Virus record (IMG/VR): IMGVR_UViG_3300025676_000004
Location: 32,001-96,000 of that record
From: a virus
Lineage: Duplodnaviria > Caudoviricetes
DNA: 64,000 bases
Strand: one strand, 5' to 3'
The notes beneath the pieces are model-generated. The model did not search any database, was not told the DNA's origin, and saw only the letters and a list, made by a program, of their open reading frames with translations. Shown here in pieces: positions 1,841 through 32,467 of this stretch. Each line of letters opens with the position of its first letter. Positions within the stretch are counted from its first letter, which is position 1. Position numbers and translations under genes: made by a program.

Positions 1841-3673
1841 ATGTCAATACTTGTACTATTAAAAACCGCAGGAGATTCTTCAACAGCATTATCCGATTTA
1901 ACAATCAAAAAGGATAGTGTTCTTGGTATTTCTTCGTTGGTTGCCGAACAAGTTCCAGATTTTGTTCGAGTGGACCATCCCAGAATGGTAACATTTATGG
2001 AAGCATATTATGAATGGATGGAACAAAAAAATGAAACACTTCATAGTACATTTGTTCTTAGGGATTTTGCAGATGTAGATGATACTATAAGTAATTTTAT
2101 AAAACACTTCAAGACACAATATCTTGACAGATTCCCGCAAAGTCTTGCTTATGACCAAAATACAAATTCCGCAGTCGATGAAAAAAGACTAATTAAGCGT
2201 ATTAAAGAATTCTATAGAGCAAAGGGTACAGAAAAGTCATATAAACTTCTCTTTAAAATTCTTCAAGATGCAACAATTACAGATTTCTATTATCCAAAAA
2301 CAGATATTGTAAAATCATCTAATGGTAAATGGATAGAGAATAAAAGTATTAAAGTTTCCTTAACAAATAAAGACGAAATTTGGAATGCAAAAAACACCAC
2401 AATTGTCCAAAAATCAGAAGCGGGTGAAGTTTTTGCAACTGGAACAGTTCGTGGTGTAAGAAGATATGAAACACAATCTTCTACAGTGGCAGAATTAGTA
2501 ATTGATGAAATTAATGGTAAGTTCCGAGTAAACAAAAATGTACATTTTGATGTTGGTGGAAATACTGCTGAGTTTACTGAAAGTACATATTCAGTAATTG
2601 AAAATATAAAAACCTACAATGATAAAGGTGATAATCCTGTAAGGGGAAGTGGATATAAAATAGGAGAGAAAGTGACACTCTCAAATGCAACAGGCGGAAC
2701 AGATGCATTTGGTTTAATTTCTGAAATTGATGGTAAAGGTGGAATCATATCTGTTGAAATTATAAACTCTGGTATATCTTATAAAGATACCGACCCGATA
2801 ACTTTTAATGTTGCATCTTTGGGTGGAACTGGCGCAGGACTTACTGCATCTATTGGTGCAATGACATCATATAGTGGATACTATTTCAACACACAAGGTC
2901 AACCAAGTTCCAATAAGAGAATGTTTGATAATTATTTTTACCAAGACTTCTCATATGAAATAAAAACAAACATTGCATTAAAATCATATAAGGATACTAT
3001 CTTAGATTTAGTTCATCCTTCTGGAACAAAATTGTTCAATATGATGTTGATGAAAAATACTCATCCTGTATCTACAAAATATAAAACGACAGCAAAACCC
3101 TTTGAGATTTCTATTCTTGGTCACTATACTCCCTATACTTGGAATACCGCAGAAAATCTACGGCATAATAGTCAGAGTGTGGACTTATACCCAGTTGGTT
3201 ATAATCCAACCATAGGAACTGTAAATGAATCTGGTGCTACTGCACATTCTGGAACTACAGCAAGTGGTAGGAGTGGTTCTTATTGGGGATTGGTTTATAA
3301 TGATTATGCGGGACGAACATCACAAAACGATAGCAACACGGGCGGAAATACATTTGCATATGATTTGGGGGTCGGTGGTACTTGGGATGCAGGGACAACA
3401 GGACCACTTTGGTATTTAAGTCAAGGTATATTCTTCACAGCAGGAACAGGTGGAGCATCAGCCTCATATGAATTTCTTGGAACTGCCGATGCAGGTGACT
3501 TTGATAATAACGGTTCATATTGGGTGATATATCCCCACCCAAATATAAGAGGCATAGATAATATACCATCTGGGTGTAGTTTTTCCGCAGTTAAGATGAA
3601 TCCATTCTTCTATATTGATAGAGGAGAAACTGGTGGAATCGAAACGGAATTTTCAACTAATACACCTACATAG
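1841..3673 (+). CDS. gp7: baseplate wedge subunit, gp7-like
   Basis: QVPDFVRVDHP, FYRAKGTEKSYKLLF, YFYQDFSYEI, LVHPSG motifs; lies between gp6 and gp8. Confidence 0.75.
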   Translation: MSILVLLKTAGDSSTALSDLTIKKDSVLGISSLVAEQVPDFVRVDHPRMVTFMEAYYEWMEQKNETLHSTFVLRDFADVDDTISNFIKHFKTQYLDRFPQSLAYDQNTNSAVDEKRLIKRIKEFYRAKGTEKSYKLLFKILQDATITDFYYPKTDIVKSSNGKWIENKSIKVSLTNKDEIWNAKNTTIVQKSEAGEVFATGTVRGVRRYETQSSTVAELVIDEINGKFRVNKNVHFDVGGNTAEFTESTYSVIENIKTYNDKGDNPVRGSGYKIGEKVTLSNATGGTDAFGLISEIDGKGGIISVEIINSGISYKDTDPITFNVASLGGTGAGLTASIGAMTSYSGYYFNTQGQPSSNKRMFDNYFYQDFSYEIKTNIALKSYKDTILDLVHPSGTKLFNMMLMKNTHPVSTKYKTTAKPFEISILGHYTPYTWNTAENLRHNSQSVDLYPVGYNPTIGTVNESGATAHSGTTASGRSGSYWGLVYNDYAGRTSQNDSNTGGNTFAYDLGVGGTWDAGTTGPLWYLSQGIFFTAGTGGASASYEFLGTADAGDFDNNGSYWVIYPHPNIRGIDNIPSGCSFSAVKMNPFFYIDRGETGGIETEFSTNTPT

Positions 3674-3692
3674 GTGATATGGAGAGGTTTTA

Positions 3693-5708
3693 ATGGTAGC
3701 AACTGGCGACAATTCAGTTTTCAAACACGGACTAAGGAGAAGCATTGTAGAATCCTTTGTTGAGGGTTTTGATTTTAAATCCAATGATAGGTATTTTCTG
3801 TTTGTAGGAAAAGTTGACGGATGGACAGGTGGTGATGTTATACCATCACTTACTGATAGTCGTTCCGAAGATGTTGATATTTGGCGAAATATTGTTGGTA
3901 TAAAACAAATAGACAGAAACAGTATTTTCTATATGATTCCAAAATATGAATGGACTAACGGCATTAAGTATACAATGTATGACGATACCGTGGATTTGAC
4001 TGATAAGAAATTTTATGTTTTAAATTCTGAATATAATGTATACAAGTGCATACATAACAACAATCAATTGTCTTCTGTCGAACCCTCTGGTATAAAAGTT
4101 GATGGTAATATAACAACATCAGATGGTTATGTGTGGAAATATATGTACACAATTCCAGAACCACATCGATATCACATTGATGATAATCTAATTCCAGTAA
4201 ATATCGTTTCTTCAAATGGTTCATCAACAGAAACTAATAATCAATGGAAAGTACAAAACAATTCTATAAATGGAGCAATAGAATATATTTATATTGACCA
4301 ATCCACAGTTGGTGTAAACTGGGATAGTGCTTTGGTGATTCCACACAACCCAACAGTAAACTTAACATCAGATAATTCGTTGTCTGGTGCAACAGGAATT
4401 TCATTAAATTCTACACATCTTCAATCAGATGATGATTATAATGGATTGGTTATAACTGTAACAAGTGGAAATGGTTCTGGTCAAAGAAGAATAATTACCG
4501 ATTATGTTGGTGGTTCTGACAATATGGTAAAATTTGACACACCCCTAACAAAAGAAGTACCTATAAATAGTAATTATGAAATTGCCCCAAGGATAACAAT
4601 TTATGGTGACGGTGTTTCAGCAGATGCATATATTGATTTGTATGATTATGATGCTGATTATGCTACACGAAAACAAATTGAAAGAATTGCGATTGCAAAT
4701 AAAGGTAAAAATTATACCTACGCAACTGTAGAATTTACTCCAATTACCGTTTCTGCAAGCATGGATAACGGTGTAACCGCAGATGCTCGACCAATTATAT
4801 CACCTCAAGGTGGTCATGGTTCAAATGCTGTTAGAGAATTAGATTGCACTTCGCTGTTAGTGACTGTTAATATTGACCAGAATGAAAACAACGACTTCCT
4901 TCCAGAAAATGAAATTCGACAATATGGAATTTTAAAGAATCCAATTTTAAATGATACAGATTCTCAGTATCTGGACATAAACGGAAATCCACATAGAGTT
5001 GCAGGGTTAGAAGCATCATTAAAAACGACATTAGAAATTTCCCCAATAAACTCAGAAGCATTTTTACCAGAAACATTATTTACAATTGGAAAGTATATCA
5101 TTGGTAAAGAATCAAAAGCAAATGCCAAGATTGAAAATTGGAGTCCTTCATTAAATAATAATCGTGGCATTCTTACTATAAGTAAATTGAATGGAAATTT
5201 CATTACACCAGTTGATTCATCTGCAACAGGTGAAGGAATTGTTGAATTTGAGCAATCAGGAGATAGTTGGGATTTCAGTACAGTCCAAGTGGCCTCCGTG
5301 TCGGGATTTGATAACATTTATGCCAATACTGTTCCCACATATAATTGTACTTGGACTCTTGGTATTTCGGGGGATTCCCTCACTACTAGTTCATTTCCAA
5401 TTGATATCGGAGTTACTGGGGGGAGTGCTACCACAGGACCGCAAGAACCAACTGGATTGTGTTTGAATTGGGTGGTAGATGACACTGGAACAGGCGGAAC
5501 ATTGACACTAACCGAAGCAATTGGTATATTTAATACTGGTGATTCTATTGGAAGTTCTTCGTATTCTTCCACAACTTCTGTTATAAATAATATAACACAA
5601 CCAGAAATCAAACAAAATACTGGCGAAATAATATATGCTCAGAATATGAAACCAGTTGAAAGAGAACAAGAACAACGAGAACAATATCAGATTATTCTGA
5701 AATTCTAG
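3693..5708 (+). CDS. gp8: baseplate wedge subunit gp8
   Basis: FYVLNSEYNVYKCI, DGYVWKYMY, ISPQGGHGSNAVREL motifs. Confidence 0.88.
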   Translation: MVATGDNSVFKHGLRRSIVESFVEGFDFKSNDRYFLFVGKVDGWTGGDVIPSLTDSRSEDVDIWRNIVGIKQIDRNSIFYMIPKYEWTNGIKYTMYDDTVDLTDKKFYVLNSEYNVYKCIHNNNQLSSVEPSGIKVDGNITTSDGYVWKYMYTIPEPHRYHIDDNLIPVNIVSSNGSSTETNNQWKVQNNSINGAIEYIYIDQSTVGVNWDSALVIPHNPTVNLTSDNSLSGATGISLNSTHLQSDDDYNGLVITVTSGNGSGQRRIITDYVGGSDNMVKFDTPLTKEVPINSNYEIAPRITIYGDGVSADAYIDLYDYDADYATRKQIERIAIANKGKNYTYATVEFTPITVSASMDNGVTADARPIISPQGGHGSNAVRELDCTSLLVTVNIDQNENNDFLPENEIRQYGILKNPILNDTDSQYLDINGNPHRVAGLEASLKTTLEISPINSEAFLPETLFTIGKYIIGKESKANAKIENWSPSLNNNRGILTISKLNGNFITPVDSSATGEGIVEFEQSGDSWDFSTVQVASVSGFDNIYANTVPTYNCTWTLGISGDSLTTSSFPIDIGVTGGSATTGPQEPTGLCLNWVVDDTGTGGTLTLTEAIGIFNTGDSIGSSSYSSTTSVINNITQPEIKQNTGEIIYAQNMKPVEREQEQREQYQIILKF

Positions 5709-5725
5709 CCTAGAAGGTTTAACGA

Positions 5726-11406: not shown

Positions 11407-14085
11407 ATGTCAAGTAGTCTCCATTATGTAACACCACTTCAACTCTCTGACACATTCAACGAATGGTTCTTGAGAAGTAACGACCTTATTGATGTTGTCA
11501 ATAAGATTAATGTATACAATGTAGAGAACGGTTGGGGATTGGCAAGATATCGAAGTATTGACGGTACAACACTGATTAGACTTAATATCGGTCAAGAAGA
11601 AAAAGAATATGACGGTACAGCAGTTGCATCTGATTATACTTACGGACTTAGATTTATTGCAAATACCAGTGTAACTGGTGGTGCAAACCCCGATGTTTCT
11701 TCAACTCGAAAAATACTAACATTAGATTTTGAAAATTTACCGAGTGCAACAGGCGGTGTTTCAGGTGCATCTGTACATGAAACAGATTACTTTGCATTCT
11801 CCGATACTTCAAGTGGTACTGGTTCAATTCGTGGCGTTCAAGCACAGGATATGTTACCGTATGGAATTAGTGGTGACCATAGATTCTATGGTAATATTTA
11901 CTTCGATGGTGACAACACCGTCATCAACTCCACCGAACTAAACATTGATGATAAATTAATTTATATTGCGACAAACAATACAAATGATACAACTGATGGA
12001 TACTTAAACGACCAAAACCTTCAAGGTGCTGGTCTTGTTATTCGTGGTGCATCTGGTGATAAAGAATTCACTTACGAATATACTGAAGTAGCGGGTGGTG
12101 GGACATACCACGCATTCAAATCAAATATTGATATAATGTTTGGTGCAGATTCTTCTGCACTATGTGAAGATAATAGTTTGAAATTCTTATCATTGGTTGA
12201 TGATGATTTTGATATAAGTTTCCGAACAATAAACGGTGAAGACAAATTCTGGAAAATTAGAAGAACTAAATCTGGTGATACTCAAGGAAGATTAGTATTC
12301 TTCCATGAAAACACAACTACAGGTATTTCTGCTGATGCGATTTCATTATCTAAACTTGGAACAGTTAAAATCCATCAACTTGATGGTGACATTGTAGATG
12401 GTGTAACACACGAGTCAACATTCAAACATCAACCTGCTCCATATTCTGTACCAACATCTGGTATGAGTGGAGATTCATATCTTCATTATAAATGGACAAA
12501 TAGAAAAACAATAGACCAAGTTGCACACGGATTTACCGCAGGTGACTTGCTTAGATATTACCCATCAGGTACAACTTATGATAAAGCATACAATTCATCA
12601 AAAGCAACAGCAGAAGTAGTTGCAATTGTTGAAGATGGTTCGCCTGGTTCGAGTGCAGACCAATTTGTTGGAGTGTTCTCTGGATTGGTTGATTTGAGTT
12701 TATGGACTCCTCAAGGATGGAGTGCAGGACACGGTACAACAATGTCTGTTGGAGAAGTTTACTTCTTAGACGGAACAGGAAATTCTGGTGGGTTTACTTC
12801 AGACGAACCAATTACAGACGGTGAAATTAGAAAACCCATATTAGTTGCAACAGGACAACAAGAAGGACTATTTGTAAATTACCTTGGTAATGTTGTTGCA
12901 ACTGGTGATGCGGCGAGTGCCACTGGTGATATTGTATATTCTGATGGGTATCTATTAGATACATCAATTCTCCCAAATCAAGAATTTAAAAATAAGGTTG
13001 TAAATGGTGACTTCTCTTTCTGGCAACGAGCAGAAGATGGTATTGTTTCTGGTGGAACATCAGGTGCAATAAACTGGGACGGTTCAACTGGTACAAGATT
13101 TACATCAAGTAATGATGCAATCTATACATCTGATATGTGGATGATTGATACTCGGCCAGATGGAACATTAGCAGAATCCCAGAAACACGGTCATACATTT
13201 GCAAGTGGGCCAAGCAACACCTCACCATATACGACAGGTGTTCGTGGTTCTTATATGAAAGTTCTGAATAACACATCAGGTTCAGGTAGCAAATCATACT
13301 TAATCAATAGAATTGAAAATGTTGGTACACTTGCTCCTTCTTCGGGAACATCATATGCAACATTAAGTTATTATGTACAAGGTTCATCTGCGGGTGTTGC
13401 CTCAATGGACGATATGACAGTATCGCTTTGGCAAGTATTCGATGGTAATAGTGGAGATGGTATAGATTATGGTGGCGGTGCATCATCTTGTTGGGGTGTT
13501 AATTTAGGAAGCGGTGTTACCAATGAAGGTGGACACAGTGCAGACATTCCCACATCTTGGACAAAGCAATCTCACACTTTCATTTTAAAAAATACAGATG
13601 GAATAAGTGCAGGATATAATGAGAATTATAATTGGTTAGAAGTTAAATTTGAACTTCCAACACAATGGGGTGTTAGTGGTGGTATTGATTTAGCAAGAGT
13701 TCAACTTGAAGGTGGTTCAGGTGCCACGGATTGGGATAACAGACCAATACAAATTGAAGAGAGTATAGTTAATAGATACTATCAACGACATTTTGTATTG
13801 TTGAATTCATATGCTGATGCGGGTGGTACATTGGGTGCGAGTGTAAACTTTGACGCAACACCATATCCATATTACGGGTATACTCCTGCAACTAATTTAA
13901 ATAACAAGTGTGTTTATGTTCATAATGCAAGGTCTAATAATTGTGCAGTTGGAGCAACGACAGATGTTTCGAGTGCGGCGCCAGGAAATGGTTTCTTCAT
14001 CGAACGAATTAATAATTCTGGAAGTGCAGGAATGGTAGGAATGGGTGGTATTTACCACTTTGATTTTGGAATCTACGATGATTAA
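11407..14085 (+). CDS. tail fibre / baseplate-attached fibre protein
   Basis: N-terminal SDTFNEWFLRSN attachment-type motif; Gly/Ser/Thr-rich; C-terminal NKVVNGDFSFWQR...VQLEGG module. Confidence 0.7.
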   Translation: MSSSLHYVTPLQLSDTFNEWFLRSNDLIDVVNKINVYNVENGWGLARYRSIDGTTLIRLNIGQEEKEYDGTAVASDYTYGLRFIANTSVTGGANPDVSSTRKILTLDFENLPSATGGVSGASVHETDYFAFSDTSSGTGSIRGVQAQDMLPYGISGDHRFYGNIYFDGDNTVINSTELNIDDKLIYIATNNTNDTTDGYLNDQNLQGAGLVIRGASGDKEFTYEYTEVAGGGTYHAFKSNIDIMFGADSSALCEDNSLKFLSLVDDDFDISFRTINGEDKFWKIRRTKSGDTQGRLVFFHENTTTGISADAISLSKLGTVKIHQLDGDIVDGVTHESTFKHQPAPYSVPTSGMSGDSYLHYKWTNRKTIDQVAHGFTAGDLLRYYPSGTTYDKAYNSSKATAEVVAIVEDGSPGSSADQFVGVFSGLVDLSLWTPQGWSAGHGTTMSVGEVYFLDGTGNSGGFTSDEPITDGEIRKPILVATGQQEGLFVNYLGNVVATGDAASATGDIVYSDGYLLDTSILPNQEFKNKVVNGDFSFWQRAEDGIVSGGTSGAINWDGSTGTRFTSSNDAIYTSDMWMIDTRPDGTLAESQKHGHTFASGPSNTSPYTTGVRGSYMKVLNNTSGSGSKSYLINRIENVGTLAPSSGTSYATLSYYVQGSSAGVASMDDMTVSLWQVFDGNSGDGIDYGGGASSCWGVNLGSGVTNEGGHSADIPTSWTKQSHTFILKNTDGISAGYNENYNWLEVKFELPTQWGVSGGIDLARVQLEGGSGATDWDNRPIQIEESIVNRYYQRHFVLLNSYADAGGTLGASVNFDATPYPYYGYTPATNLNNKCVYVHNARSNNCAVGATTDVSSAAPGNGFFIERINNSGSAGMVGMGGIYHFDFGIYDD

Positions 14086-16518: not shown

Positions 16519-18651
16519 ATGGCGTATTATAGTGCAATAAATGTTCCAACAGATGTTGAGGGATTAGTTCAAATAATCTCTAGCAATATCAATTATTATA
16601 TTAGTCCAGATGGCAATGATTCATCTGGAGTTGGCACATCTGTTAGTCCGTGGAAAACTTTAACAAAAGCATTTGACTTTATTAAAAATAAAAGAATAGC
16701 AAAGGATGCTTCTGTAACATTCACAATCAAAAGAAAAGAAAATATGGATTTTTGGTATGAATATCTTATTGACGATACCAATATTGTTGTAGAGCATCCA
16801 GATGCAGATAGGATTATAATTCAAGGTGAAATTTCAAGCACATTAAATCTTTATGGTGTAAATTATTATGATTCAACATTAAGAGCAATGGGTGACTCTA
16901 TCACTGGTGGATACTTAATGGAAATTACAGTTCAAGATGCCACAAATGTTAGTGTTGGTGACTTCATTACGATTAAGGATAGTAATTATTCTGCCGGTTC
17001 TTCATATACAACTGGTATGTCAGGTGCGACATTTATAGAAACAGATTTTGACCACTACGAAACAAGTCCATATTCTGGCGAAGATATCAGTGGTTCTTCT
17101 GCTGATTATGCTCCACTATCGTTAAGAAAATGTTTAGCATTTGGTTGTCACGAAGTGATTGGTGTAGATGTTGTTGGTGGTTCAATTTCAAGTGATACTG
17201 TTCTTCTTCATATTAGACATACAAATAATACATTTGAATCATATGCAAATGGTACAGATGGTGCTACAGCATATGTTACTCCACAAAGTTTACAATTCTC
17301 ATCCGATGTAAATAATTTCCCATCAACACAAACAACAGCAGGATATATTCAAGGCAATGTTTGGAGTGATGGTGCAACTGGTCATAGACTTGGTGTTACA
17401 GGTACTAACAAACTTCCTGTTTCTGGTGGTTATACAGCAGGAGCATCGGGCAGTTATGGTGGATGGACAGCAGAAGCAAACGGTGGTACAGACATTGGTG
17501 GTATCAGTGGTGGTAATGGTTATTGGTGGGATAAAAGTCCACAACAAAGTAACGGCATGCAAAGTGCATTTAGTGGGATAGAAGTTAAACATCTTCCTTG
17601 TAGAATAAATTTTCAAAATAGTAGTGGTTTAGAATTCAATAGTAGTCAATTAGGAAAACTAAAAGACTTGGTAATTTGTGGACCATCATTTGCATTGGGT
17701 GCAACTGCATCAATATTAACAGATGGTTCTGTTGGTGTAAAAGCAAACGATGGTGGTGGATTAATTGAAACCGATAATATTGCAGTCGTTGGATTTGAAA
17801 GTGGATTTGTTTCAGAAAACAATTCACAAATAATTGCAAGTGGTTCAATTTCAAGTGCTTGTAAATATGGATTTGTTTCAAACAATAACAGTCAAATGGA
17901 AGCAAAACATACTATTGCTTCTGGTTGTTATGATGGATATAGTAGCACCAACCATTCTAATATGAACAGTTCATATAGTATCTCTGTCGCAAATGAAAAT
18001 GACGGAATGCTAGTATCTCATAATAGTAATATGGATGCATCGTTTGGTTTGTCTTGTATGAATACTGGGTATGGTTATCACATAAACAACTCTTCAAATT
18101 TACACTTATCCCCAGATAGAAATATCCTTGGTGAAAATGGTGTGGGCACTACTGCTGATTCACTGAATGGTGGAGCAACAAGTGATGTACGATACCACTA
18201 TTCTGATAAGACAGGTTCATTCGCATTCCGAAATAATCTTTCAGGTGTATATGTAGAAAACTCAAATGTATATGCAACAAATACAAGAAGTAGTTATAAC
18301 TTAAACGCAGGTGTTCTTGCTGATAGAAAATCACACATTGATGCTAACCACATTAACACATTCAATAATGGGTTAAGTGCAGGTAATAATTATCACGGTT
18401 CTGGTTTTGTTGTCAATAACCAAAGTACAGGTATTGTTGGTATGTCCACATCCGAGAACAATAAGGTGTACGGTTTCCATTCGGATTATGGTTCAAACTT
18501 AATTGCGACAGGTGCATCTGGTGGTACTGCTGATGGTGGTCAAGGTGCCGGTACTTATGGATTATATTCCGATAAGGACTCTTTAATATTTAACAACAAT
18601 GCTTCAGGTTCTACGGCATCGGCGAACAACGGAGCGATTCGAGATTATTGA
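16519..18651 (+). CDS. tail spike/fibre with probable parallel beta-helix (pectin-lyase-like)
   Basis: YYISPDGNDSSGVGTSVSPWKTLTKA motif; repetitive Asn/Ser-rich G-x-x-x-x-N-N-S turns in the C-terminal half. Confidence 0.7.
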   Translation: MAYYSAINVPTDVEGLVQIISSNINYYISPDGNDSSGVGTSVSPWKTLTKAFDFIKNKRIAKDASVTFTIKRKENMDFWYEYLIDDTNIVVEHPDADRIIIQGEISSTLNLYGVNYYDSTLRAMGDSITGGYLMEITVQDATNVSVGDFITIKDSNYSAGSSYTTGMSGATFIETDFDHYETSPYSGEDISGSSADYAPLSLRKCLAFGCHEVIGVDVVGGSISSDTVLLHIRHTNNTFESYANGTDGATAYVTPQSLQFSSDVNNFPSTQTTAGYIQGNVWSDGATGHRLGVTGTNKLPVSGGYTAGASGSYGGWTAEANGGTDIGGISGGNGYWWDKSPQQSNGMQSAFSGIEVKHLPCRINFQNSSGLEFNSSQLGKLKDLVICGPSFALGATASILTDGSVGVKANDGGGLIETDNIAVVGFESGFVSENNSQIIASGSISSACKYGFVSNNNSQMEAKHTIASGCYDGYSSTNHSNMNSSYSISVANENDGMLVSHNSNMDASFGLSCMNTGYGYHINNSSNLHLSPDRNILGENGVGTTADSLNGGATSDVRYHYSDKTGSFAFRNNLSGVYVENSNVYATNTRSSYNLNAGVLADRKSHIDANHINTFNNGLSAGNNYHGSGFVVNNQSTGIVGMSTSENNKVYGFHSDYGSNLIATGASGGTADGGQGAGTYGLYSDKDSLIFNNNASGSTASANNGAIRDY

Positions 18652-20277: not shown

Positions 20278-21132
20278 ATGGCAAAGAATCCATATTTTAA
20301 ACATACCAACAACGAACAACAAATTGTTGAAGACCTTACCATCGAAGCAATCAAAATTCACGGTGAGGATATGGTATACATTCCCCGAACAATTGTAAAT
20401 AAAGACGAATTGTTTGGTGAAGATACTATTAGTAAATTTGAGGGTGGTACTCAAATTGAAATGTATGTTGAGAGTGTTGATGGATTTGAAGGTGATGGAG
20501 ATTTCATATCAAAGTTTGGTCTTGAAATTCGTGATAGTATTTCTCTAGTTGTATCTAAGAAAAGATTCGTACAAGAAATTGCCAATGGTAGACCACTTGA
20601 AGGGGATTTAATTTACTTCCCACTCACCAAAGGTTTGTTTGAAATTAAATTTGTCGAACACGAAAATCCATTCTACCAATTAGGTAAACTTTACACATAT
20701 AAACTTTCCTGTGAATTATTCCAATACAGTCAAGAAGACTTGAATACAGGATGGTCAGATGTTGATACGATTGAAGATACACATCAAGACACAACGATGA
20801 ACTTAGTATTCTCTGCATCAACAGGTTCATTTGTGGTTGGAGAATCTATCACAACCGTAAGTGGGTTTAGTGCAAAGGTTGTTGCTTGGGCAGGAACTAC
20901 AAATACCCTTGTGGTACATAATCTTTCAGGGACTCTCTCAGGGGGCGATACAGTCACTGGTTCGTCCTCCAGTGCGACAGGAACATTCCAATCACAATCT
21001 GCTCCTGCAATACCAACAATCATCCCCAACGCAAGCACAGACCCGTTTGACGCATCTGATGATATGCAAGTCAACGCAGATGACATATTCGACTTTACCG
21101 ACATTGACCCGTTCTCAGATGGGGGATATTAA
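20278..21132 (+). CDS. gp14: neck protein gp14
   Basis: EAIKIHG..YIPR, SKFGLEIRD, RPLEGDLIYFP, FVEHENPFYQLGK. Confidence 0.95.
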   Translation: MAKNPYFKHTNNEQQIVEDLTIEAIKIHGEDMVYIPRTIVNKDELFGEDTISKFEGGTQIEMYVESVDGFEGDGDFISKFGLEIRDSISLVVSKKRFVQEIANGRPLEGDLIYFPLTKGLFEIKFVEHENPFYQLGKLYTYKLSCELFQYSQEDLNTGWSDVDTIEDTHQDTTMNLVFSASTGSFVVGESITTVSGFSAKVVAWAGTTNTLVVHNLSGTLSGGDTVTGSSSSATGTFQSQSAPAIPTIIPNASTDPFDASDDMQVNADDIFDFTDIDPFSDGGY

Positions 21133-21950
21133 TGTTTACATATTTTAATAACAATTCAGTACGAAATCTTGTGGTAGCATTTGGTTCACTCTTTAATAAT
21201 CTTCGCATTCAAAGATATAATACAGATGGTTCAGTAAAAGAAAATATCAGAATTCCACTTGCATATGGTGCTAAAGAAAAATATCTACGGCGTATTGATG
21301 AAGGTGGTTCTATTCAAAATGAAGATGGTCAAGTAGTTGCAATTACTTTACCAAGAATGAGTTTTGAACTTGAATCGGTGGATTACGATACTACACGAAA
21401 AAGAAACACAATGCAGAAATTGGCTGGTGTGCATACAGACGACAGCAAAATGAATTATACTTATGCAGAAGTTCCATACAATGTCAATTTCAATTTATAC
21501 ATTATGACAAAGTTTATGGACGATGGATTGCAGATTGTTGAGCAAATCCTCCCATATTTTACTCCAGAATTTACAGTATCAATTAATCCAACCACTCTTG
21601 CTACCAAAATGGATATTCCTATCGTTCTGAATAGTGTTAGTAGTGAAGAAGATTGGGAAGGTGATTTTGATTCAAGAAGAAGTTTAACTTGGACTCTCGG
21701 ATTTACAGCAAAGACATATATCTATGGTAGAAAATCCGACCAAGAAAGAATCAAGAGAGTATTGGCAACTATACTTGATGGTGGTATTGCATCTGGGACT
21801 ACTGGTGCCGCATCGAGTATGATTGATGTTGGAGTAACAGGACCTTCTGGTGCTTCTTCCGATTCTTCTAATTATGACCCAGATATTACATTTAGAGTAT
21901 GGGGTAGTGGTACAGGTGATATAGATATTTATGGAGATATAATAGGGTGA
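21132..21950 (+). CDS. gp15: tail terminator gp15
   Basis: VAFGSLFNN, PLAYG.KEK, TLPRMSFE, QIVEQILPYFTPE. Confidence 0.95.
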   Translation: MFTYFNNNSVRNLVVAFGSLFNNLRIQRYNTDGSVKENIRIPLAYGAKEKYLRRIDEGGSIQNEDGQVVAITLPRMSFELESVDYDTTRKRNTMQKLAGVHTDDSKMNYTYAEVPYNVNFNLYIMTKFMDDGLQIVEQILPYFTPEFTVSINPTTLATKMDIPIVLNSVSSEEDWEGDFDSRRSLTWTLGFTAKTYIYGRKSDQERIKRVLATILDGGIASGTTGAASSMIDVGVTGPSGASSDSSNYDPDITFRVWGSGTGDIDIYGDIIG

Positions 21951-22465
21951 GTGATAAGAAAAAAGTTGATGAACAAATAGAAGATGCATTAGATTTAGAA
22001 ATAACAGAAGACAGTGAAATAGTACACGATGGAATGTCTGCTGGCGGAAGTCCAATTATGATTCCGACAAGTGATGAAGACAAACTCAAGCGTGACTATA
22101 ATCTTGTAAGAAAAAACCTAAAAGATATTATTGATACAGGGAATACTGCCATTGATGGTATTCTTACTGTTGCATCTGAAACAGAATCACCAAGAGCATA
22201 TGAAGTTGCCGCTCAGATGATTAAGAATGTTGCTGATGTGAATAAAGACCTTATTGAAATGCACAACAAGATGAAGCAAATTAGAAAAGAAGATGGTACA
22301 CAAAAAGCACAGAACATTACCAACAATTCTCTTTTTGTAGGTTCTACTCAAGAACTTCAAAAACTATTGAAACAGCAAAGAGAACAATTGATTGAAAGTG
22401 AAATTGAAGAAAAAGAAGCACTTGATATTATTGATGTAGAGTATGAAGATAATGACAAAGAATGA
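21947..22465 (+). CDS. gp16: terminase small subunit
   Basis: DYNLVRKNL, ESPRAYEVA, NNSLFVGSTQELQKLL. Confidence 0.92.
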   Translation: MSDKKKVDEQIEDALDLEITEDSEIVHDGMSAGGSPIMIPTSDEDKLKRDYNLVRKNLKDIIDTGNTAIDGILTVASETESPRAYEVAAQMIKNVADVNKDLIEMHNKMKQIRKEDGTQKAQNITNNSLFVGSTQELQKLLKQQREQLIESEIEEKEALDIIDVEYEDNDKE

Positions 22466-24098: not shown

Positions 24099-24109
24099 TG
24101 CTTTATTAT

Positions 24110-24182: not shown

Positions 24183-26222
24183 ATGCCATTTCAAATTAGT
24201 CCCGGCGTGAATGTTACCGAAAAGGACCTCACAAATATTGTCCCTGCTGTTGCAACAACAATTGGTGGTATCGCAGGATACTTCCAATGGGGACCTTGTG
24301 AGGAACGAGTTTTGGTAGACAGCGAGGACAACCTCGTTACATTATTCGGAAAACCCAACAACAACACAGCAGAATATTTCTGGACAGCCGCAAACTTCCT
24401 CGGATATACCAATGCACTACAAGTCGTTCGCAAGATTGACACTGATGGTGCAAATGCAGTTTCAATTGCAGATGGTTTAAGAGGAGATACTGCAATCGGA
24501 AATACAGGTGACAGTAAACTCATCAAGAACAAAGATTCATATGATGACACATACTCCGATGGTATTTCTGGTGGCGATATGTACTTTGCTGCCAAATATC
24601 CTGGCATCCTTGGTTCTTCACTGAAAGTATCGATGTCGGATAAACACACTGCCGCATTTACTGGCATTACAGCAACTGTTGACACAGCATATGTTGATGT
24701 TACTGGATTAGATATTAAAGGCGAAGTTGCAGTTGGTGACATCCTCAAATTAGATTCAAACTATACAGTTTCTGGATTTAGTGGTGGTTCACTGCACGCC
24801 AATGACTCTGGCACGGCAGCAAGTCACTCAACAGAAACCGCAGAATACACTCACATTCACCTATCTTCAGATATTTTATCTACCGATGCAGGTACTGGTT
24901 TGACAGGTACAGTAACTTGGGCATACGCTAGTAACTTTAATGCAACACCAGACACATCTACAGATGCCGCAAAATTCAATGCAGTAAATGACGAAATTGA
25001 TATTGCAGTTATTGATGAACAAGGTTTATTTAGTGGAGCAAAAGGAACTGTTCTTGAAACATTCTCTGCTTCTAAAGCATCTGATGCTAAAAAGTTTGAT
25101 GGTTCTGGTAACTTCTATAAGACTGTTATCAATAATGAATCAAAATATATCTGGTGGGGCTCACACCCTTCCACTGCATTGACATCCACTACTGGTTTGT
25201 CTGGTGGAACAGATGGTACAGATTGGGGTGCATCATTAGCAGATGTAGACTCTGGTAGTGAAGGTGCAACTTTCGATTCATTCAACAGAAACTTTTACAG
25301 TTCTCTTGCAAATGGTCATGATGGTACTGGTACTACTGCCGCATCACTATACACAAACGGTTATGAATTGTTTGCAGATGCAGAAACAGTAGATTGTGCA
25401 TTATTGCTCGGTGGACCAGCAGAAGAAACTCTTAGTGGACAACTCATCGACCTAGTTGATGCAAGAAAAGATTGCGTAGCATTCCTTTCACCACCAAAAG
25501 CAGATGTTGTTAATCAAACATCAGTAACAGTTGCACAACAAAATGCAGTAGATTACTATAATAACGACCTAAATAAATCATCCTCATACGGTGTATTTGA
25601 TTGTGGTTGGAAGTATCAGTATGACCGATACAATGACATCTACCGATGGATTCCATTGAACGGTGACATTGCTGGTCTTTGTGCAAGAACTGAAAAAACT
25701 AACGATGCTTGGTGGAGTCCCGCAGGTTTCAACCGTGGTCAAATCCGTAACATCGTTAAACTTGCATATAACCCACGAAAAGCACACAGAGATAATCTTT
25801 ATAAGAACAATCTCAACCCAGTAGTTGCCTTCCCAGGCGAAGGAACGGTTCTTTTCGGGGATAAGACAATGCAAAGAAAACCAAGTGCATTCGATAGAAT
25901 CAATGTTCGTAGATTGTTCATTGTTCTTGAAAAAGCAATTTCAACTGCCTCAAAGTATCAACTCTTCGAGTTCAATGATGAATTCACTCGTTCCAATTTC
26001 GTAAATATGGTTTCACCATTCTTGCGAGATGTTCAAGGACGAAGAGGTATTTATGATTACAAAGTAGTATGCGATGAAACTAATAACACCGCAGAAGTTA
26101 TTGACCGAAACGAATTTGTTGCAGACATCTACATCAAACCTGCTCGTTCGATTAACTTCATCCAACTCAACTTTGTTGCAGTTAGAACTGGTGTTGCATT
26201 CGAGGAAATCGCAGGAGCGTAA
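24183..26222 (+). CDS. gp18: tail sheath protein
   Basis: SPGVNVTEKDL, WWSPAGFNRG, FDRINVRRLF, KPARSINFI. Confidence 0.97.
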   Translation: MPFQISPGVNVTEKDLTNIVPAVATTIGGIAGYFQWGPCEERVLVDSEDNLVTLFGKPNNNTAEYFWTAANFLGYTNALQVVRKIDTDGANAVSIADGLRGDTAIGNTGDSKLIKNKDSYDDTYSDGISGGDMYFAAKYPGILGSSLKVSMSDKHTAAFTGITATVDTAYVDVTGLDIKGEVAVGDILKLDSNYTVSGFSGGSLHANDSGTAASHSTETAEYTHIHLSSDILSTDAGTGLTGTVTWAYASNFNATPDTSTDAAKFNAVNDEIDIAVIDEQGLFSGAKGTVLETFSASKASDAKKFDGSGNFYKTVINNESKYIWWGSHPSTALTSTTGLSGGTDGTDWGASLADVDSGSEGATFDSFNRNFYSSLANGHDGTGTTAASLYTNGYELFADAETVDCALLLGGPAEETLSGQLIDLVDARKDCVAFLSPPKADVVNQTSVTVAQQNAVDYYNNDLNKSSSYGVFDCGWKYQYDRYNDIYRWIPLNGDIAGLCARTEKTNDAWWSPAGFNRGQIRNIVKLAYNPRKAHRDNLYKNNLNPVVAFPGEGTVLFGDKTMQRKPSAFDRINVRRLFIVLEKAISTASKYQLFEFNDEFTRSNFVNMVSPFLRDVQGRRGIYDYKVVCDETNNTAEVIDRNEFVADIYIKPARSINFIQLNFVAVRTGVAFEEIAGA

Positions 26223-26233
26223 ATTAATTTTGG

Positions 26234-26270
26234 TATTTATGGGGGGGGTTATCAAAATCCCCCCTAAATA
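26234..26270. terminator. hairpin between gp18 and gp19 overlapping a late-promoter motif
   Basis: TATTTATGGGGGGGGTT-ATCAA-AATCCCCCCTAAATA imperfect inverted repeat. Confidence 0.6.
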
Positions 26271-26288
26271 CTATTAAAGGAGTAATAC

Positions 26289-26816: not shown

Positions 26817-26839
26817 TTTTAGTAAGGAAATATTATATT

Positions 26840-29193: not shown

Positions 29194-29195
29194 TT

Positions 29196-29366
29196 ATGGA
29201 TACTAGAGATATAATTGATGCATTAAGAAACAATAACTTGGATGTTGCAAGAGATGAAACACAAAAGGTATTGTATAAGAAATCTGGTGAAGGTATGGCG
29301 GATAAAAGGTTGGAAATTTCTTCCACAATAGGACAAAAACAAGAACCAGAGGTAAATGACGAATGA
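29196..29366 (+). CDS. small prohead core protein, gp67-like (56 aa; not in ORF track)
   Basis: ATG 29196 to TGA 29366, MDTRDIIDALRNNNLDVARDETQKVLYKK...; ATGA overlap with gp21. Confidence 0.7.
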   Translation: MDTRDIIDALRNNNLDVARDETQKVLYKKSGEGMADKRLEISSTIGQKQEPEVNDE

Positions 29367-30013: not shown

Positions 30014-30017
30014 AAAA

Positions 30018-30025
30018 TATACATA
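30018..30025 (+). promoter_or_regulatory. variant late promoter (gp22)
   Basis: Intergenic TATACATA. Confidence 0.7.
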
Positions 30026-30060
30026 TAGTAGCAATTTAAAAAAGTCAAAAGGAGATTACA

Positions 30061-31068
30061 ATGTCCAACAAAGACATCCTAGAAACAGCAAAAGAAATCA
30101 TAGAGTCAGAAGTGACTCTTGATGAAAGTACCCCAGAAGTCGAAGCAGACTCAAAGGGTACAGTTAATACAAAGTCTAAAGGCGAGAAGCCAGCAGAATC
30201 ACCATCTGTTAATACTGACAGCATCGAAGATGAAGACATCTACAGTGCTGATGGTGCAGGTGCAAAAGTAAATGAACCAGAAGCAGATGAAGACGAAGCA
30301 GACGAAAATGCTGACTCCGTTGATATGAAAGCATCTTCGGCGGCCGCAACACAAGAGCATATGGATGCTTTGTTCGGTGGTGAAGAACTTTCAGAAGACT
30401 TCCGCAACAAAGCAGAAGTTATCTTCTCATCCGCAATCAATGAGCGTTCAGAAGCAATCCGTTCCGAACTACAAGAAGCATTTGATGCTCAACTTGCAGA
30501 AGAAACTGATAAAATTTCAAATGAACTATCCGAAAAACTAGACGACTATCTAAACTATGTTGTCAAGGAATGGATGGACGAAAATGAAATCGCAATTGAA
30601 CACGGACTCAAGAATGAAATTTCAGAGTCATTCATTGCAGACTTAAAGACACTCTTTGAAAGTCACAACATTGAAGTTCCAGAAGAAAAGTTCGATGCAC
30701 TTGCAGAGGCCAACGAAAAGGTTGAAACTCTTGAAGCAAAACTCAACGAACAACTCGAAAAGAACATTGAACTTTCAAAAGGTAACGAAGAACTAGAATG
30801 TGTAAAGGTATTTGCAGAATCCGCTAAAGATTTAACTGATACTGACACTGAAAAACTTCGCAGTCTTTCAGAAGGTTTAGAGTTTGATAGCGTTGAACAA
30901 TACAACGAAAAATTAAACCTTCTTAAAGATAGTTACTTCAGAGCAACCTCAGAAAACAATGATGATGTTGAAGAAAACACACTTACAGAAGAAACAACAA
31001 ATACTCGACAAATGGATTCATACTTGGATTCAATTACACGAGTAGGAAAATCACCAAGGCAATCGTAA
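30061..31068 (+). CDS. gp22: prohead core scaffold protein
   Basis: Acidic; LSEDFRNKAEVIF, DDYLNYVVKEWMDENEIAIE. Confidence 0.92.
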   Translation: MSNKDILETAKEIIESEVTLDESTPEVEADSKGTVNTKSKGEKPAESPSVNTDSIEDEDIYSADGAGAKVNEPEADEDEADENADSVDMKASSAAATQEHMDALFGGEELSEDFRNKAEVIFSSAINERSEAIRSELQEAFDAQLAEETDKISNELSEKLDDYLNYVVKEWMDENEIAIEHGLKNEISESFIADLKTLFESHNIEVPEEKFDALAEANEKVETLEAKLNEQLEKNIELSKGNEELECVKVFAESAKDLTDTDTEKLRSLSEGLEFDSVEQYNEKLNLLKDSYFRATSENNDDVEENTLTEETTNTRQMDSYLDSITRVGKSPRQS

Positions 31069-31080
31069 AAGCCTAAATTT

Positions 31081-31088
31081 TATAAATA
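31081..31088 (+). promoter_or_regulatory. gp55-type late promoter (gp23)
   Basis: Intergenic TATAAATA. Confidence 0.8.
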
Positions 31089-31135
31089 AACTATACTTAT
31101 CAAATAAGTAATTTCAATAACTAAGGAGAAATCAA

Positions 31136-32467
31136 ATGGATGATAAAGCACTATTGGCCGAACAACTTCAAAAGAAGTGGGCGCCAGTTTTAGAACATCC
31201 TGAACTTCCAAAAATTGAGAACAGTTACCGTAAAAATGTAACTACTGTTCTTTTGGAAAATCAGGAACAAGCACTAATGGAAACACCCGCTAACGCAATG
31301 GGTGCAGGAAACTCACCTCATATGGGCGGCGCAGGTAATGTTGCGACATTCGACCCTGTACTTATCTCACTTGTACGCAGGTCAATGCCTAACCTTATCG
31401 CATACGATATCGCAGGTGTTCAACCAATGACAGGTCCTACTGGACTTATCTTTGCAATGCGTTCCAAGTATGTAACACAAGACGGTGCAGAAGCATTTTA
31501 CAACGAAGCAGACACCGATGGTGTTTCTGGTGGTGGTACAGGTACTCACGCAGGTACTGACCCGCTTGGTGGTTCATATACTAGTGGTACTGGTATGGGA
31601 ACAGAAGATGCAGAAGGCAAAACCCCTAACGAAATGGCATTCAGTATTGAACGAGTTGCTGTTGAAGCAAAGAGCCGTATGCTCAAAGCAGAATACAGTA
31701 CAGAACTTGCTCAAGACTTGAAAGCAGTTCATGGTTTAGATGCAGAAGCAGAATTGTCAAATATCCTCTCAAGCGAAATCCTTGCGGAAATCAACCGAGA
31801 AGTTATTCGTACAGTTTATAACCAAGCAAAACTTGGTTGCGACCAAACTGACCTTGCTAACAGTGACGGTGTTACTGTAGACGGTACTGGGGGTAAAACC
31901 GCCGGTGTTTATGACCTGCTCAAGGACTCAGACGGCCGTTGGAGTGCAGAACGCTTCCGTGGTTTGATGTTCCAAATCGAACGAGAAGCAAATGTAATTG
32001 CTAAAGAAACACGCCGTGGTAAAGGTAACATCGTTATCTGCTCCTCAGATGTTGCTTCAGCACTTTCAATGAGTGGTATTCTTAACCACGACCCAGCATT
32101 CGGAAATCTAACTGTAGATGACACTGGTAACACATTCGTTGGTGTACTTAACGGTAACTGTAAAGTTTATGTTGACCCATACGCATCAACTAACTATGTT
32201 TGCGTTGGATATCGTGGTGAAAGTCAATATGACGCAGGTTTATTCTACTGCCCATATGTTCCACTACAAATGGTTCGTGCCGTTGATGCTAGTACATTCC
32301 AACCAAAAATTGGATTCAAGACTCGTTACGGTATGGTTGAAAACCCATTCGCTCGTGGAACGAGTGCCGCAGTTGATAACATCGGTGGTACAAGAGCAAA
32401 CACTTATTACAGAATCTTCCGAGTTGATAACCTACACGGTATCAACGCAGGTGGTGCAACTTCCTGA
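31136..32467 (+). CDS. gp23: major capsid protein
   Basis: DPVLISLVRRSMPNLIAYDIAGVQPMTGPTGLIFAMR; FYCPYVPLQMV; FQPKIGFKTRYG. Confidence 0.98.
   Translation: MDDKALLAEQLQKKWAPVLEHPELPKIENSYRKNVTTVLLENQEQALMETPANAMGAGNSPHMGGAGNVATFDPVLISLVRRSMPNLIAYDIAGVQPMTGPTGLIFAMRSKYVTQDGAEAFYNEADTDGVSGGGTGTHAGTDPLGGSYTSGTGMGTEDAEGKTPNEMAFSIERVAVEAKSRMLKAEYSTELAQDLKAVHGLDAEAELSNILSSEILAEINREVIRTVYNQAKLGCDQTDLANSDGVTVDGTGGKTAGVYDLLKDSDGRWSAERFRGLMFQIEREANVIAKETRRGKGNIVICSSDVASALSMSGILNHDPAFGNLTVDDTGNTFVGVLNGNCKVYVDPYASTNYVCVGYRGESQYDAGLFYCPYVPLQMVRAVDASTFQPKIGFKTRYGMVENPFARGTSAAVDNIGGTRANTYYRIFRVDNLHGINAGGATS

Follow-up and report, generated by a model that had tools for sequence, protein, structure and literature searches.

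The closest described counterpart of the enzyme discussed here is SgtA of Clostridioides difficile (PMC7157674). SgtA joins a GT-A domain at its N-terminus to TPRs at its C-terminus, and in vitro it places beta-O-GlcNAc on both Thr and Ser of G-x-T-G and G-x-S-G peptides, unfolded ones with a single site (G-A-T-G and G-A-S-G) included. Its gene adjoins that of its collagen-like (G-P-T)n substrate, bclA3. The collagen-like region of this one spore exosporium protein, BclA3, is the sole known substrate of SgtA. GmaR, a flagellin O-GlcNAc transferase, and SunS/ThuS, the S/O-glycosyltransferases of glycocins, likewise combine GT2 with TPR, work in the cytoplasm and attach sugar to Ser, Thr or Cys residues of proteins or peptides, but their targets are flagellin or a single bacteriocin precursor, and none of them is known with a G-x-T-G motif spread over a proteome.

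In phages, Freeman et al. 2023 (Cell Host Microbe) reportedly found that mycobacteriophage-encoded glycosyltransferases modify virion structural proteins, the sites being said to lie in the C-terminal parts of capsid and tail-tube subunits. That system differs from the present one in belonging to actinobacteriophages and in using other glycosyltransferases. We know of no description in which a collagen-mimic motif, or a T4-like or marine phage, figures in virion glycosylation, and a literature search for a published phage virion motif of the G-x-[ST]-[GA] kind found none. The marine T4-like pelagimyophages carry many glycosyltransferase and sugar-nucleotide genes near fibre and hypervariable regions, and their glycosyltransferases have been assigned to modification of the host O-antigen (LPS) (PMC7029224). 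Among GenBank isolates of pelagimyophages the enzyme treated below was not found, and in contrast to the O-antigen assignment our results suggest that it acts on virion proteins of the phage itself.

The DNA analysed, referred to as the window, is a stretch of 64,000 nucleotides from a Caudoviricetes record (IMGVR_UViG_3300025676_000004). The initial annotation of this stretch had noticed that the motif G-x-[ST]-[GA] is abundant in virion proteins and had read it as a surface-exposed acceptor sequon for a glycan cluster. The counts that it gave for individual proteins are all reproduced exactly, down to the eight tetrapeptides of the gp18 sheath (Table 1), and gp43 has one match while gp17, gp20 and gp46 have none.

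Table 1. Positions of the motif-bearing proteins and of the glycan cluster in the window, with motif matches observed and expected.
Feature	Position	Strand	Length (aa)	Matches, observed vs expected	Remarks
gp7-like baseplate wedge protein	1841..3673	+	610	9 vs 1.6	PHROG baseplate wedge
gp8-like baseplate wedge protein	3693..5708	+	671	7 vs 1.2	D or G next in 5
Tail fibre protein	11407..14085	+	892	17 vs 3.8	13 are G-x-S/T-G/A-D/G
Fibre or spike protein	16519..18651	+	710	15 vs 3.5	without family match
gp15 tail sheath stabiliser	21132..21950	+	272	4 vs 0.5	
gp18 tail sheath	24183..26222	+	679	8 vs 1.9	all within residues 101-386
gp23 major capsid protein	31136..32467	+	443	5 vs 1.3	weak evidence
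Variable glycan-tailoring genes	47839..54297	+			GT32-like, Glyco_trans_1_2, GNAT-like, DUF2334 (deacetylase-like), sulfotransferase-like, methyltransferase-like (Pfam)
NAD-dependent sugar epimerase/dehydratase	54298..55245	+			Pfam E 1e-54 to 3e-55
GT2-TPR glycosyltransferase	55242..56570	+	442		Pfam Glycos_transf_2, E 9e-12
Small protein	56578..57006	+	142	4 vs 0.6	

GT2-TPR and its gene neighbourhood

The GT2-TPR glycosyltransferase is laid out as a GT-A domain (residues 1-180), TPR-like helices (181-356) and a long C-terminal helix (361-441). In the AF2 model (pLDDT 93.6) strands and helices alternate over the first of these regions, and the second is made up of paired helices with pLDDT above 90. 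The DADD sequence (D91-A92-D93-D94) does not vary among 43 homologues and is paired with IDADE in the alignment to GmaR, and indeed the best sequence match among solved structures is GmaR of Listeria (E 3e-12), although it covers residues 3-96 only. The top Foldseek matches are ThuS/SunS, which align over the full length (about 400 columns, E 3e-15) at 14-17% identity, and Foldseek furthermore returns consensus TPR proteins, to which the sequence matches are weak. With a GT-A domain that carries the DxD motif for binding metal and nucleotide sugar, and with a TPR-like region in the model, the protein is assigned to the protein or peptide glycosyltransferases of the GT-A plus TPR class, and it is predicted to be active in transfer. 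Its likeness to SgtA is drawn from the shared architecture and from a similar gene linkage. No Clostridioides locus is present among the best 80 bacterial matches, and SgtA is with its 358 residues devoid of the long C-terminal helix.

The gene linkage concerns, first, the small protein, whose gene directly follows that of GT2-TPR in 53-54 of 80 viral loci and which has 4-7 motif matches in most of them, those of the window being placed in a conserved Gly-rich central loop (GVTGGGSTGE...GTTGG). PHROG 1084 and BppU_N are weak leads to its identity, and judged from the gene adjacency it is likely to be the cognate substrate of GT2-TPR. In about 15 of these 53-54 loci a collagen-like (G-x-T)n gene comes after the small protein. 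Linkage to collagen-like G-x-T genes is likewise seen in bacteria, where 46 of 67 GT2-TPR loci have, no farther than 6 kb away, a reading frame of 20 or more collagen triplets, and Thr is the commonest third triplet residue in 32 of the 46.

The epimerase gene is found beside that of GT2-TPR in 50 of 80 loci, and the conserved core consists of the epimerase, GT2-TPR and the small protein only, the rest of the glycan cluster being variable. The T4 late-promoter consensus occurs 28 nt before the cluster, where TATAAATA at 47811 is late-promoter-like and lies just upstream of the tailoring genes, and again 87 nt before the enzyme gene. Since the cluster holds several further transferases, among them the GT32-like protein with its weak match of the TcdA/TcdB type, and since the tie of GT2-TPR to the motif sites is indirect, it must be considered that the motif is recognised by something else, be it another enzyme of the cluster such as the GT32-like one, a kinase, a host factor or a component of the host surface. 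Each of the other cluster genes is however present in only 0-11 of 80 related loci, while the motif excess described below is clade-wide, and the collagen-like linkage is moreover specific to the GT2-TPR family, whose members share the conserved core with the epimerase and the small protein. We accordingly regard a recogniser other than GT2-TPR as quite improbable.

The motif in virion proteins

Pooled over 14 virion proteins, G-x-[ST]-[GA] is observed 79 times, as compared with 22.4 +/- 4.5 expected from global shuffles (z 12.6) and 31.1 +/- 5.2 when residues are shuffled inside 10-residue blocks (z 9.3). Twelve alternative orders of the same residue classes give z of 0.4-6.3 in global and -1.3 to 4.0 in local shuffles, and since these scores are far lower, the signal is specific to the order of the residues and richness in Gly, Ser and Thr alone is ruled out as its source. 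Taken one by one, the motif-rich proteins (the gp7-like and gp8-like proteins, the two fibres, gp15, gp18, gp23 and the 142-aa protein) each reach p 0.0005-0.009 in 2,000 composition-preserving shuffles.

It should also be mentioned that the proteins from which the motif was first defined by eye are those that later served for counting it, which raises the concern that it was picked post hoc, and by chance, from fibre proteins rich in Gly, Ser and Thr. Against this stand its survival in local shuffles and order permutations and its recovery when all 8,000 a-x-b-c patterns were scanned without bias, a scan in which G.TG (z 15.7) and G.TA (z 14.2) rank at the top behind only a Cys repeat, the corresponding ratios in phages without the enzyme being 1.09-1.26. 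The pattern is furthermore replicated in 5 other genomes and at least 80 loci that were outside the view of the initial annotation, so that an origin in post hoc choice is effectively refuted and carries a negligible probability.

Tandem copies can likewise be ruled out as the cause of the high counts, because the sequences flanking the 17 sites of the tail fibre vary from site to site and because the enrichment persists, in global and local shuffles alike, once collagen runs are removed. Uninterrupted G-x-y triplet runs are in fact limited to two short ones in the genome of the window phage, with 12 triplets in total, which is below what counts as collagen-like, and the motif matches are isolated with dissimilar flanks. 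True (G-x-T)n proteins are encoded by relatives. In this respect the phage differs from the SgtA-BclA3 pair, since its motif is scattered as isolated sites over many virion proteins that are not collagen-like.

The motif can be refined to G-[AIVLPFM]-[T>S]-[G/A/F/L], with charged residues disfavoured at positions 2 and 4 and with Gly fixed two residues upstream of the Ser or Thr. A five-residue form with D or G at position 5 occurs 38 times in the window phage, as opposed to 4-7 expected, but the preference is only modest across the clade (1.9-fold for G and 1.5-fold for D), and position 5 was therefore not adopted as part of the core motif. The O-glycosylation motif of Bacteroidota, D-[S/T]-[A/I/L/V/M/T], has an acidic residue right before the modified Ser or Thr. 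Such a residue is not a feature of the present motif, in which A, I, V, L or P takes this place and Asp has an observed/expected ratio of 0.89.

The excess is confined to the virion module, where the observed/expected ratio is 2.0-3.2 as against about 1 elsewhere, and 2 matches, with about 4.3 expected, fall in the 29 non-virion genes at 32.5-56.5 kb. Non-virion proteins nevertheless do not avoid the motif, which speaks against an acceptor role, as some avoidance might be anticipated if the enzyme were promiscuous in the cytoplasm.

Motif and enzyme across genomes

The excess is furthermore limited to genomes that carry the enzyme. With collagen runs masked, the whole-genome observed/expected ratio is 1.6-2.3 (z 5.6-8.8) in 6 genomes with GT2-TPR and 1.0-1.25 in 5 complete T4-like genomes without it, and HTVC008M, Melnitz-3, S-SSM5, S-RIM2 and RB59 thereby rule out that the motif is a general trait of T4-like structural proteins. 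The difference is also seen in gp15, which has 2-5 matches in the 6 genomes with the enzyme and none in the 5 without. A gp15 tail bearing the motif is present in 13 of 15 enzyme-bearing contigs, the other two lacking a strict match, and in none of 7 genomes without the enzyme. The gp7-like orthologues of enzyme-bearing phages have 17 matches with 3.5 expected, 13 with 3.0 and 7 with 1.6, apart from G005 with none and 0.5 expected, and those of HTVC008M and Melnitz, which lack the enzyme, have 4 with 3.1 and 3 with 2.5 expected. For the gp8-like orthologues the figures are 12 (2.6 expected) and 7 (2.0) in phages with the enzyme, as compared with 4 (1.7), 1 (2.2), 1 (1.7) and 2 (1.6) in phages without. 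The proposed comparison with T4-like phages lacking GT2-TPR thus separates the two groups genome-wide and in gp15, but gp23 is indistinct, since it has 1-6 matches in phages without the enzyme and since its GPTG at residue 100 is an ancestral, structural site conserved in those phages as well, and gp23 was therefore downgraded as evidence.

As to where the sites are found, three of those in gp15 belong to the C-terminal tail, which is rich in G/S/T, and the fourth (GFTA at 190) shortly precedes this tail, four of the eight gp18 sites (103, 108, 129 and 340) fall in loops with pLDDT below 50 in the AF2 model, and the motif region of gp18 aligns to residues ~94-351 of T4 gp18, that is to outward-facing domains. 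In gp23, the sites at 129-136 are in a variable loop and that at 253 is in a clade-specific loop insert (240-255). The claim that many sites occupy variable loops or tails hence holds for gp15, for the variable outer part of gp18 and for the gp23 insert, and the check for outer-surface exposure on gp18 gave sites that are not buried, so that the models and alignments support exposed rather than buried positions. The positions also change between relatives. While GVTG at residues 234-237 of gp15 is kept in all 6 genomes with GT2-TPR, the gp18 proteins of the same 6 genomes have 33 sites spread over 27 alignment columns, with none common to 4 or more genomes, and closer relatives retain 3-5 of the 8 gp18 sites, yet their totals are still 7-8.

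Several of these facts may nonetheless be accommodated by a different explanation, namely that the motif reflects structure or composition in this clade, for instance a turn, a mini-collagen or a fibre-packing element, and is unrelated to glycosylation. GT2-TPR would then act on nothing but the small protein and collagen-like fibres, or on a target other than protein. The 6 enzyme-bearing genomes form one clade, and the co-occurrence of motif and enzyme therefore amounts to a single evolutionary event. Two cyanophages without the enzyme have a mild motif excess (ratio 1.23-1.25, z about 3), and the conserved GPTG of gp23 points in the same direction. Furthermore, the unrelated soil phage Tunturi_5 encodes an enzyme homologue and, at a distance of about 4 kb, a (GPT/GAT)n tail fibre, but its isolated-site ratio is 1.03, so that the enzyme alone does not produce the motif pattern, and Tunturi_5 fails as an independent replicate although the link to a collagen-like fibre is present. 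Enzyme loss within the clade does not help to separate the two explanations, as the fragments with class A gp15 are only 20-38% complete and the absence of the enzyme from them is meaningless. On the other hand, the sites are found in non-homologous proteins and mostly in low-confidence loops and terminal tails, and a turnover of positions at a maintained number is unusual for an element determined by the fold. The residue preferences (Thr over Ser, a small or hydrophobic residue at position 4 and no charge) moreover match those of the enzyme-linked substrates. We therefore consider a purely structural or compositional origin unlikely, though it is the most serious of the alternatives.

A putative acceptor motif and its consequences

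Taken together, these observations make it fairly probable that G-x-[T/S]-[G/A] is the acceptor motif of a phage-encoded soluble O-glycosyltransferase of the GT-A plus TPR type and that it mimics the collagen triplet, a proposal drawn from sequences and predicted structures. The outcomes that had been named beforehand as speaking against an acceptor sequon, i.e. a lack of enrichment over shuffled controls, buried or luminal positions and equal frequency in phages without the glycan cluster, did not occur and this reading is thus supported, although gp23 contributes little to it and the link to glycosylation is one that we infer.

GT2-TPR would be made late in infection and would transfer the first sugar from a nucleotide sugar, which the adjacent epimerase/dehydratase may supply or alter, onto the Thr or Ser of a target motif that imitates a single junction between triplets in a collagen-like (G-x-T)n repeat. 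Extension and decoration of the glycan might then fall to the variable transferases and tailoring enzymes encoded nearby. The enzyme presumably served at first to modify the small protein and the collagen-like fibre, whose genes lie just downstream of its own. In the marine T4-like clade, single motif copies may later have arisen, and been retained by selection, in loops and tails that are exposed on the sheath, gp15, the baseplate and the fibres. With exposed motif copies on all of these, the virion would carry a glycan coat; transfer at the motif sites, the identity of the sugar and the purpose of the coat are all what we infer.

We lean slightly towards the wider picture in which the abundant, uncultured marine T4-like phages of a deep clade cover their whole tail, baseplate and fibres with O-glycans by way of single collagen-triplet mimics scattered through surface loops and read by an SgtA-like GT2-TPR that was ancestrally a collagen-fibre enzyme. 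In such phages the sites would turn over like the sequons of viral glycan shields, and the tailoring genes would diversify the glycan.

The glycosyltransferases of marine T4-like phages are usually read as modifiers of host LPS or of DNA. Should the motif indeed accept sugars, an entire ocean-phage clade would instead build glycosylated particles, and adsorption, stickiness to marine gels, resistance to proteases and recognition by grazers or antibodies would be affected. G-[hydrophobic]-T/S-G/A is a simple rule for searching metagenomes and for designing peptide tests, and with it an O-glycosylation motif of a phage virion would for the first time be defined by sequence. A function would furthermore be assigned to a widespread bacterial family of more than 360 GT2-TPR genes (in Mycolicibacterium, Streptomyces, Burkholderiales and others), namely the glycosylation of surface proteins of the collagen-like type, which has been documented to date in spores of Bacillus and Clostridioides only. 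The turnover of sites at a maintained count would give bacterial viruses an equivalent of the glycan shields known from animal viruses.

Motif enrichment in the virion proteins

The window takes in 64 kb of G000, an uncultured marine myophage of T4-like type with a length of 134.8 kb. Its gp23 shares about 60% identity with the protein of Methylophilales phage Melnitz and about 50% with those of cyanomyophages. The main genes of the window all lie on the + strand, with gp43 next after the glycan cluster. A 536-aa protein that weakly matches N6/N4 DNA methylases and the glutamine-synthetase-like protein that follows it may form a DNA-modification pair unconnected to the motif discussed here.

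The initial annotation counted G-x-[S/T]-[G/A] by eye in individual proteins, and all of its counts, including the eight tetrapeptides of the gp18 sheath protein, were reproduced exactly. With 2,000 composition-preserving shuffles per protein the excess has p values of 0.0005-0.009 for the gp7-like and gp8-like proteins, both fibres, gp15, gp18, gp23 and the 142-aa small protein encoded just downstream of the glycosyltransferase GT2-TPR, and when 14 virion proteins are pooled 79 matches stand against 22.4 +/- 4.5 by global shuffling (z 12.6) and 31.1 +/- 5.2 by shuffling inside 10-residue blocks (z 9.3). The caveat that fibres are naturally rich in G, S and T fails to account for this signal, since twelve alternative orders of the motif residue classes score far lower (z 0.4-6.3 globally, -1.3 to 4.0 locally). 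The described scarcity outside virion proteins is likewise found, the 29 non-virion genes at 32.5-56.5 kb having 2 matches against about 4.3 expected. Over the whole genome the virion module has 111 against 44.0 and the remainder 27 against 25.3, and the fact that no avoidance of the motif in non-virion proteins is seen at this scale counts against a reading as glycosylation. Such a reading also leaves unexplained the matches of the small terminase subunit, which is no virion surface protein (2 against 0.08 expected, p 0.0015). Two adjacent proteins of 333 and 300 aa without family match, encoded ahead of the window, are motif-rich as well (6 against 0.9 and 8 against 2.3).

Coordinates of the features discussed
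Feature	Coordinates	Strand	Remark
Baseplate, fibre, neck, sheath, head genes	window 48-32467	+	
Small terminase subunit	window 21947-22465		
gp23	window 31136-32467		
Recombination and replication genes	window 32.5-47 kb	+	
Methylase-like and glutamine-synthetase-like proteins	window 39776-42471		
Glycan cluster	window 47.8-57.0 kb	+	last genes: NAD-dependent epimerase/dehydratase, 442-aa GT2 enzyme, 142-aa protein
GT2-TPR	window 55242-56570		
Small protein	window 56578-57006		
333- and 300-aa proteins	G000 own-genome 5548-7461	-	
Giant Cys-rich fibre-like proteins	G000 own-genome 21180-29854		just before window
GT2-TPR, small protein, collagen-like protein(s)	L012:12329-14281, L016:11827-14220, L036:11723-17913, L064:11789-15865		example viral loci; about ten more among L004-L083

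Comparison with phages lacking the enzyme

Homologues of GT2-TPR occur at 144 loci in IMG/VR, and tblastn against 50,697 GenBank phage records gave six distant matches and none in cyanophage, pelagiphage, Melnitz or T4-type isolates, which were therefore used as controls for G000 and five long homologue-carrying contigs (G001-G005). With collagen runs removed and shuffles confined to 20-residue blocks, the comparison with enzyme-lacking T4-like phages proposed in the initial annotation bears out an excess in all six enzyme-bearing genomes, although the mild excess in cyanophages without the enzyme counts against glycosylation.

Motif content of enzyme-bearing and control phages (HTVC008M, Melnitz-3, S-SSM5, S-RIM2, RB59)
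Quantity	Enzyme-bearing	Controls
G.[ST][GA], observed/expected	1.62-2.31	1.01-1.25
z	5.6-8.8	0.1-3.1
Hydrophobic-x form, observed/expected	2.0-3.2	0.87-1.47
gp7-like, observed/expected	4-6 (one at 0)	1.2-2.1
gp15 matches	4, 5, 5, 5, 2, 4	0, 0, 0, 0, 0
gp18 matches	8, 4, 6, 3, 6, 6	1, 2, 4, 5, 2
gp23 matches	5, 3, 5, 0, 3, 2	1, 5, 3, 6, 1

The gp23 part of the claim is weak because the counts fail to separate the two groups, so that the five matches of this phage stand and their lineage specificity does not. The GPTG at gp23 residue 100 is ancestral, being kept in the enzyme-lacking HTVC008M, Melnitz and cyanophages. Four of the six phages with the enzyme have APTG instead, and the motif may have been removed there from a position that is buried and constrained. 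An insert in the loop at 240-255 and an extension of the C-terminus are specific to the clade and carry the motif in several members. Two classes can be told apart among eighty further gp15 loci, one with a G/S/T tail bearing the motif (locus-wide ratio about 2-5) and one with an acidic DDDFGF tail and no matches (about 1.1-2.0), and two near-complete contigs of the latter class are without the enzyme. None of nine additional enzyme-bearing contigs has the acidic tail, their gp15 matches being 6, 5, 2, 3, 2, 0, 2, 3 and 0, and overall gp15 bears the motif in 13 of 15 enzyme-bearing against 0 of 7 enzyme-lacking phages.

With collagen runs masked, six related genomes were furthermore scanned for all 8,000 a-x-b-c patterns. 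Below a Cys-rich fibre repeat the top patterns are G.TG (268 against 106, z 15.7) and G.TA (194 against 73, z 14.2), with G.TF, G.TL, G.SG and G.SA also leading, and in control phages the same top patterns reach ratios of 1.1-1.45. Position 2 favors A, I, V, L, P, F and M in the clade (ratio 2.3-3.8, against 0.7-2.1 in controls, Ala alone above 1.5), Asp and Lys show no enrichment there in the six-genome residue analysis, Thr is preferred over Ser at position 3, and Lys, Arg and Glu are disfavored at position 4. The proposed core is thus retained, but scan and residue preferences are better expressed by G-[AIVLPFM]-[T>S]-[G/A/F/L]. Enrichment of D or G directly after the motif is marked in this phage (38 against 4-7) and mild clade-wide. 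The most over-represented tripeptide patterns of the clade are G.CC, ACC and GAC (G.CC, for example, 115 against 19), which stem from Cys-rich repeats of giant fibre-like proteins and their G001-G005 orthologues and are absent from control phages.

In a tree of gp17, gp19, gp20 and gp23 the six enzyme-bearing genomes group together as a sister clade of Kyanoviridae, and the co-occurrence of motif and enzyme is therefore a single evolutionary event. The main alternative, that the motif is a structural habit of this clade, seems rather unlikely to us, and descent leaves the turnover of sites unexplained. In gp18 the six genomes have 33 sites over 27 alignment columns with no site common to four or more. 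At that depth each of the eight sites in this phage is private; relatives with 49-61% identity in the variable region keep three to five of the eight while totalling 7-8, and at kept sites x and position 4 drift within the motif class (GLTG/GATA/GNTF; GLSG/GTSG/GVSG). In gp15 three motif columns are conserved and others vary. Turnover with a steady total is what selection on the number of sites, and not on any particular site, would be expected to produce.

The GT2-TPR enzyme and linked collagen-like proteins

Pfam finds GT2 at residues 8-96 of the enzyme and weak TPR matches, and the best sequence match among solved structures is Listeria GmaR (E 3e-12), a flagellin O-GlcNAc transferase, followed by ThuS and SunS. 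The AF2 model (43 homologues, pLDDT 93.6) has GT-A at 1-180, TPR-like helix pairs at 181-356 and then an 80-residue C-terminal helix, DADD 91-94 is invariant among these homologues, and Foldseek ranks the full-length glycocin glycosyltransferases ThuS/SunS first (E 3e-15, about 400 columns), ahead of teichoic-acid enzymes matching the GT-A part only. Together these features place GT2-TPR in the GT-A + TPR class, whose members glycosylate proteins or peptides in the cytoplasm. The predicted helix of about 80 residues (361-441), with a Lys-rich tip, is lacking in SunS and ThuS and could serve in oligomerisation or docking. The T4 late-promoter consensus TATAAATA lies 55 nt before gp23, 28 nt before the first glycan-cluster gene and 87 nt before the GT2-TPR gene, but its total (11 against 6.6) is not significant and the sites are therefore simply consistent with late expression.

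Over 80 viral loci the conserved core consists of the epimerase/dehydratase (50), GT2-TPR (80) and the small protein (53), each remaining glycan gene of this phage occurring in only 0-11. Across these loci the ends of the small protein are conserved and beta-rich, and its central loop, rich in Gly, keeps GVTGgG[ST]TGe and G[TV]TGG; it has 4-7 matches against about 1 expected. In about 15 of the 80 the next gene, often overlapping the stop codon of the small-protein gene, is that of a collagen-like protein containing runs of (GPT)n or (GAT)n (30-88 matches), one or two such large proteins following in related viral contigs; in this phage the collagen-like gene has been lost from that position, where a PvuII-like nuclease gene is found instead. 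Enzyme-bearing phages commonly have collagen runs with Thr third, which the controls lack. In the soil jumbo phage Tunturi_5 a homologue of 34% identity lies about 4 kb from a tail fibre with (GPT/GAT)n, and once collagen runs are masked its isolated sites show no excess (ratio 1.03), which counts against the glycosylation reading; occurrence of the motif across many virion proteins is therefore special to the marine clade and no automatic outcome of carrying the enzyme.

Bacterial homologues number 364 (35-46% identity; Burkholderiales, Mycolicibacterium, Streptomyces, Acidobacteriota and others). Among 67 bacterial loci of at least 8 kb (contigs L256-L335), 46 have a collagen-like open frame with at least 20 collagen triplets within 6 kb. 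The triplets are mostly G-A-T or G-P-T, with Thr the commonest third residue in 32 loci, and G-A-Q, with Gln third, in a Streptomyces subset. To judge from these contig sequences, glycosyltransferase and collagen-like protein seem to form a pair that is widespread and undescribed.

Exposure of the sheath sites and reading of the motif

The initial annotation had proposed that the sites are surface-exposed, and mapping on a predicted gp18 structure is in agreement with this. In the AF2 model (22 sequences, mean pLDDT 69) Ser/Thr 103, 108, 129 and 340 lie in loops with pLDDT <50, 200 adjoins another such loop, 163 and 241 are at strand ends and 385 is in a loop, and the conserved inner core has no motif sites. 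The eight sites align to T4 gp18 residues ~94-351, a stretch that corresponds to domains I and II, which face outward in the structure of the T4 sheath (Aksyuk et al. 2009).

By architecture and gene linkage the phage enzyme may be likened to C. difficile SgtA. That enzyme, 358 aa long, combines a GT-A domain with four TPRs, and its gene directly precedes collagen-like bclA3; in recombinant form it transfers beta-O-GlcNAc from UDP-GlcNAc onto Thr of collagen-region peptides (PMC7157674). SgtA also modifies single-site peptides with G-A-T-G or G-P-T-G, and Ser variants with G-A-S-G (PMC7157674), so an enzyme of GT-A + TPR build is able to act on a G-x-T/S-G site that is isolated and unfolded. 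Pelagimyophage glycosyltransferases have been read as modifiers of host LPS (PMC7029224), and a literature search found no phage virion motif of this kind. Counts, shuffles, order controls and pattern scan all confirm the enrichment first observed, and its interpretation as a glycan acceptor, now with a refined motif and a specific enzyme, is the best-supported explanation: the motif is somewhat probably an O-glycosylation acceptor for GT2-TPR, which would join two kinds of process already known, protein O-glycosylation by GT-A + TPR enzymes and the glycosylation of phage virions.
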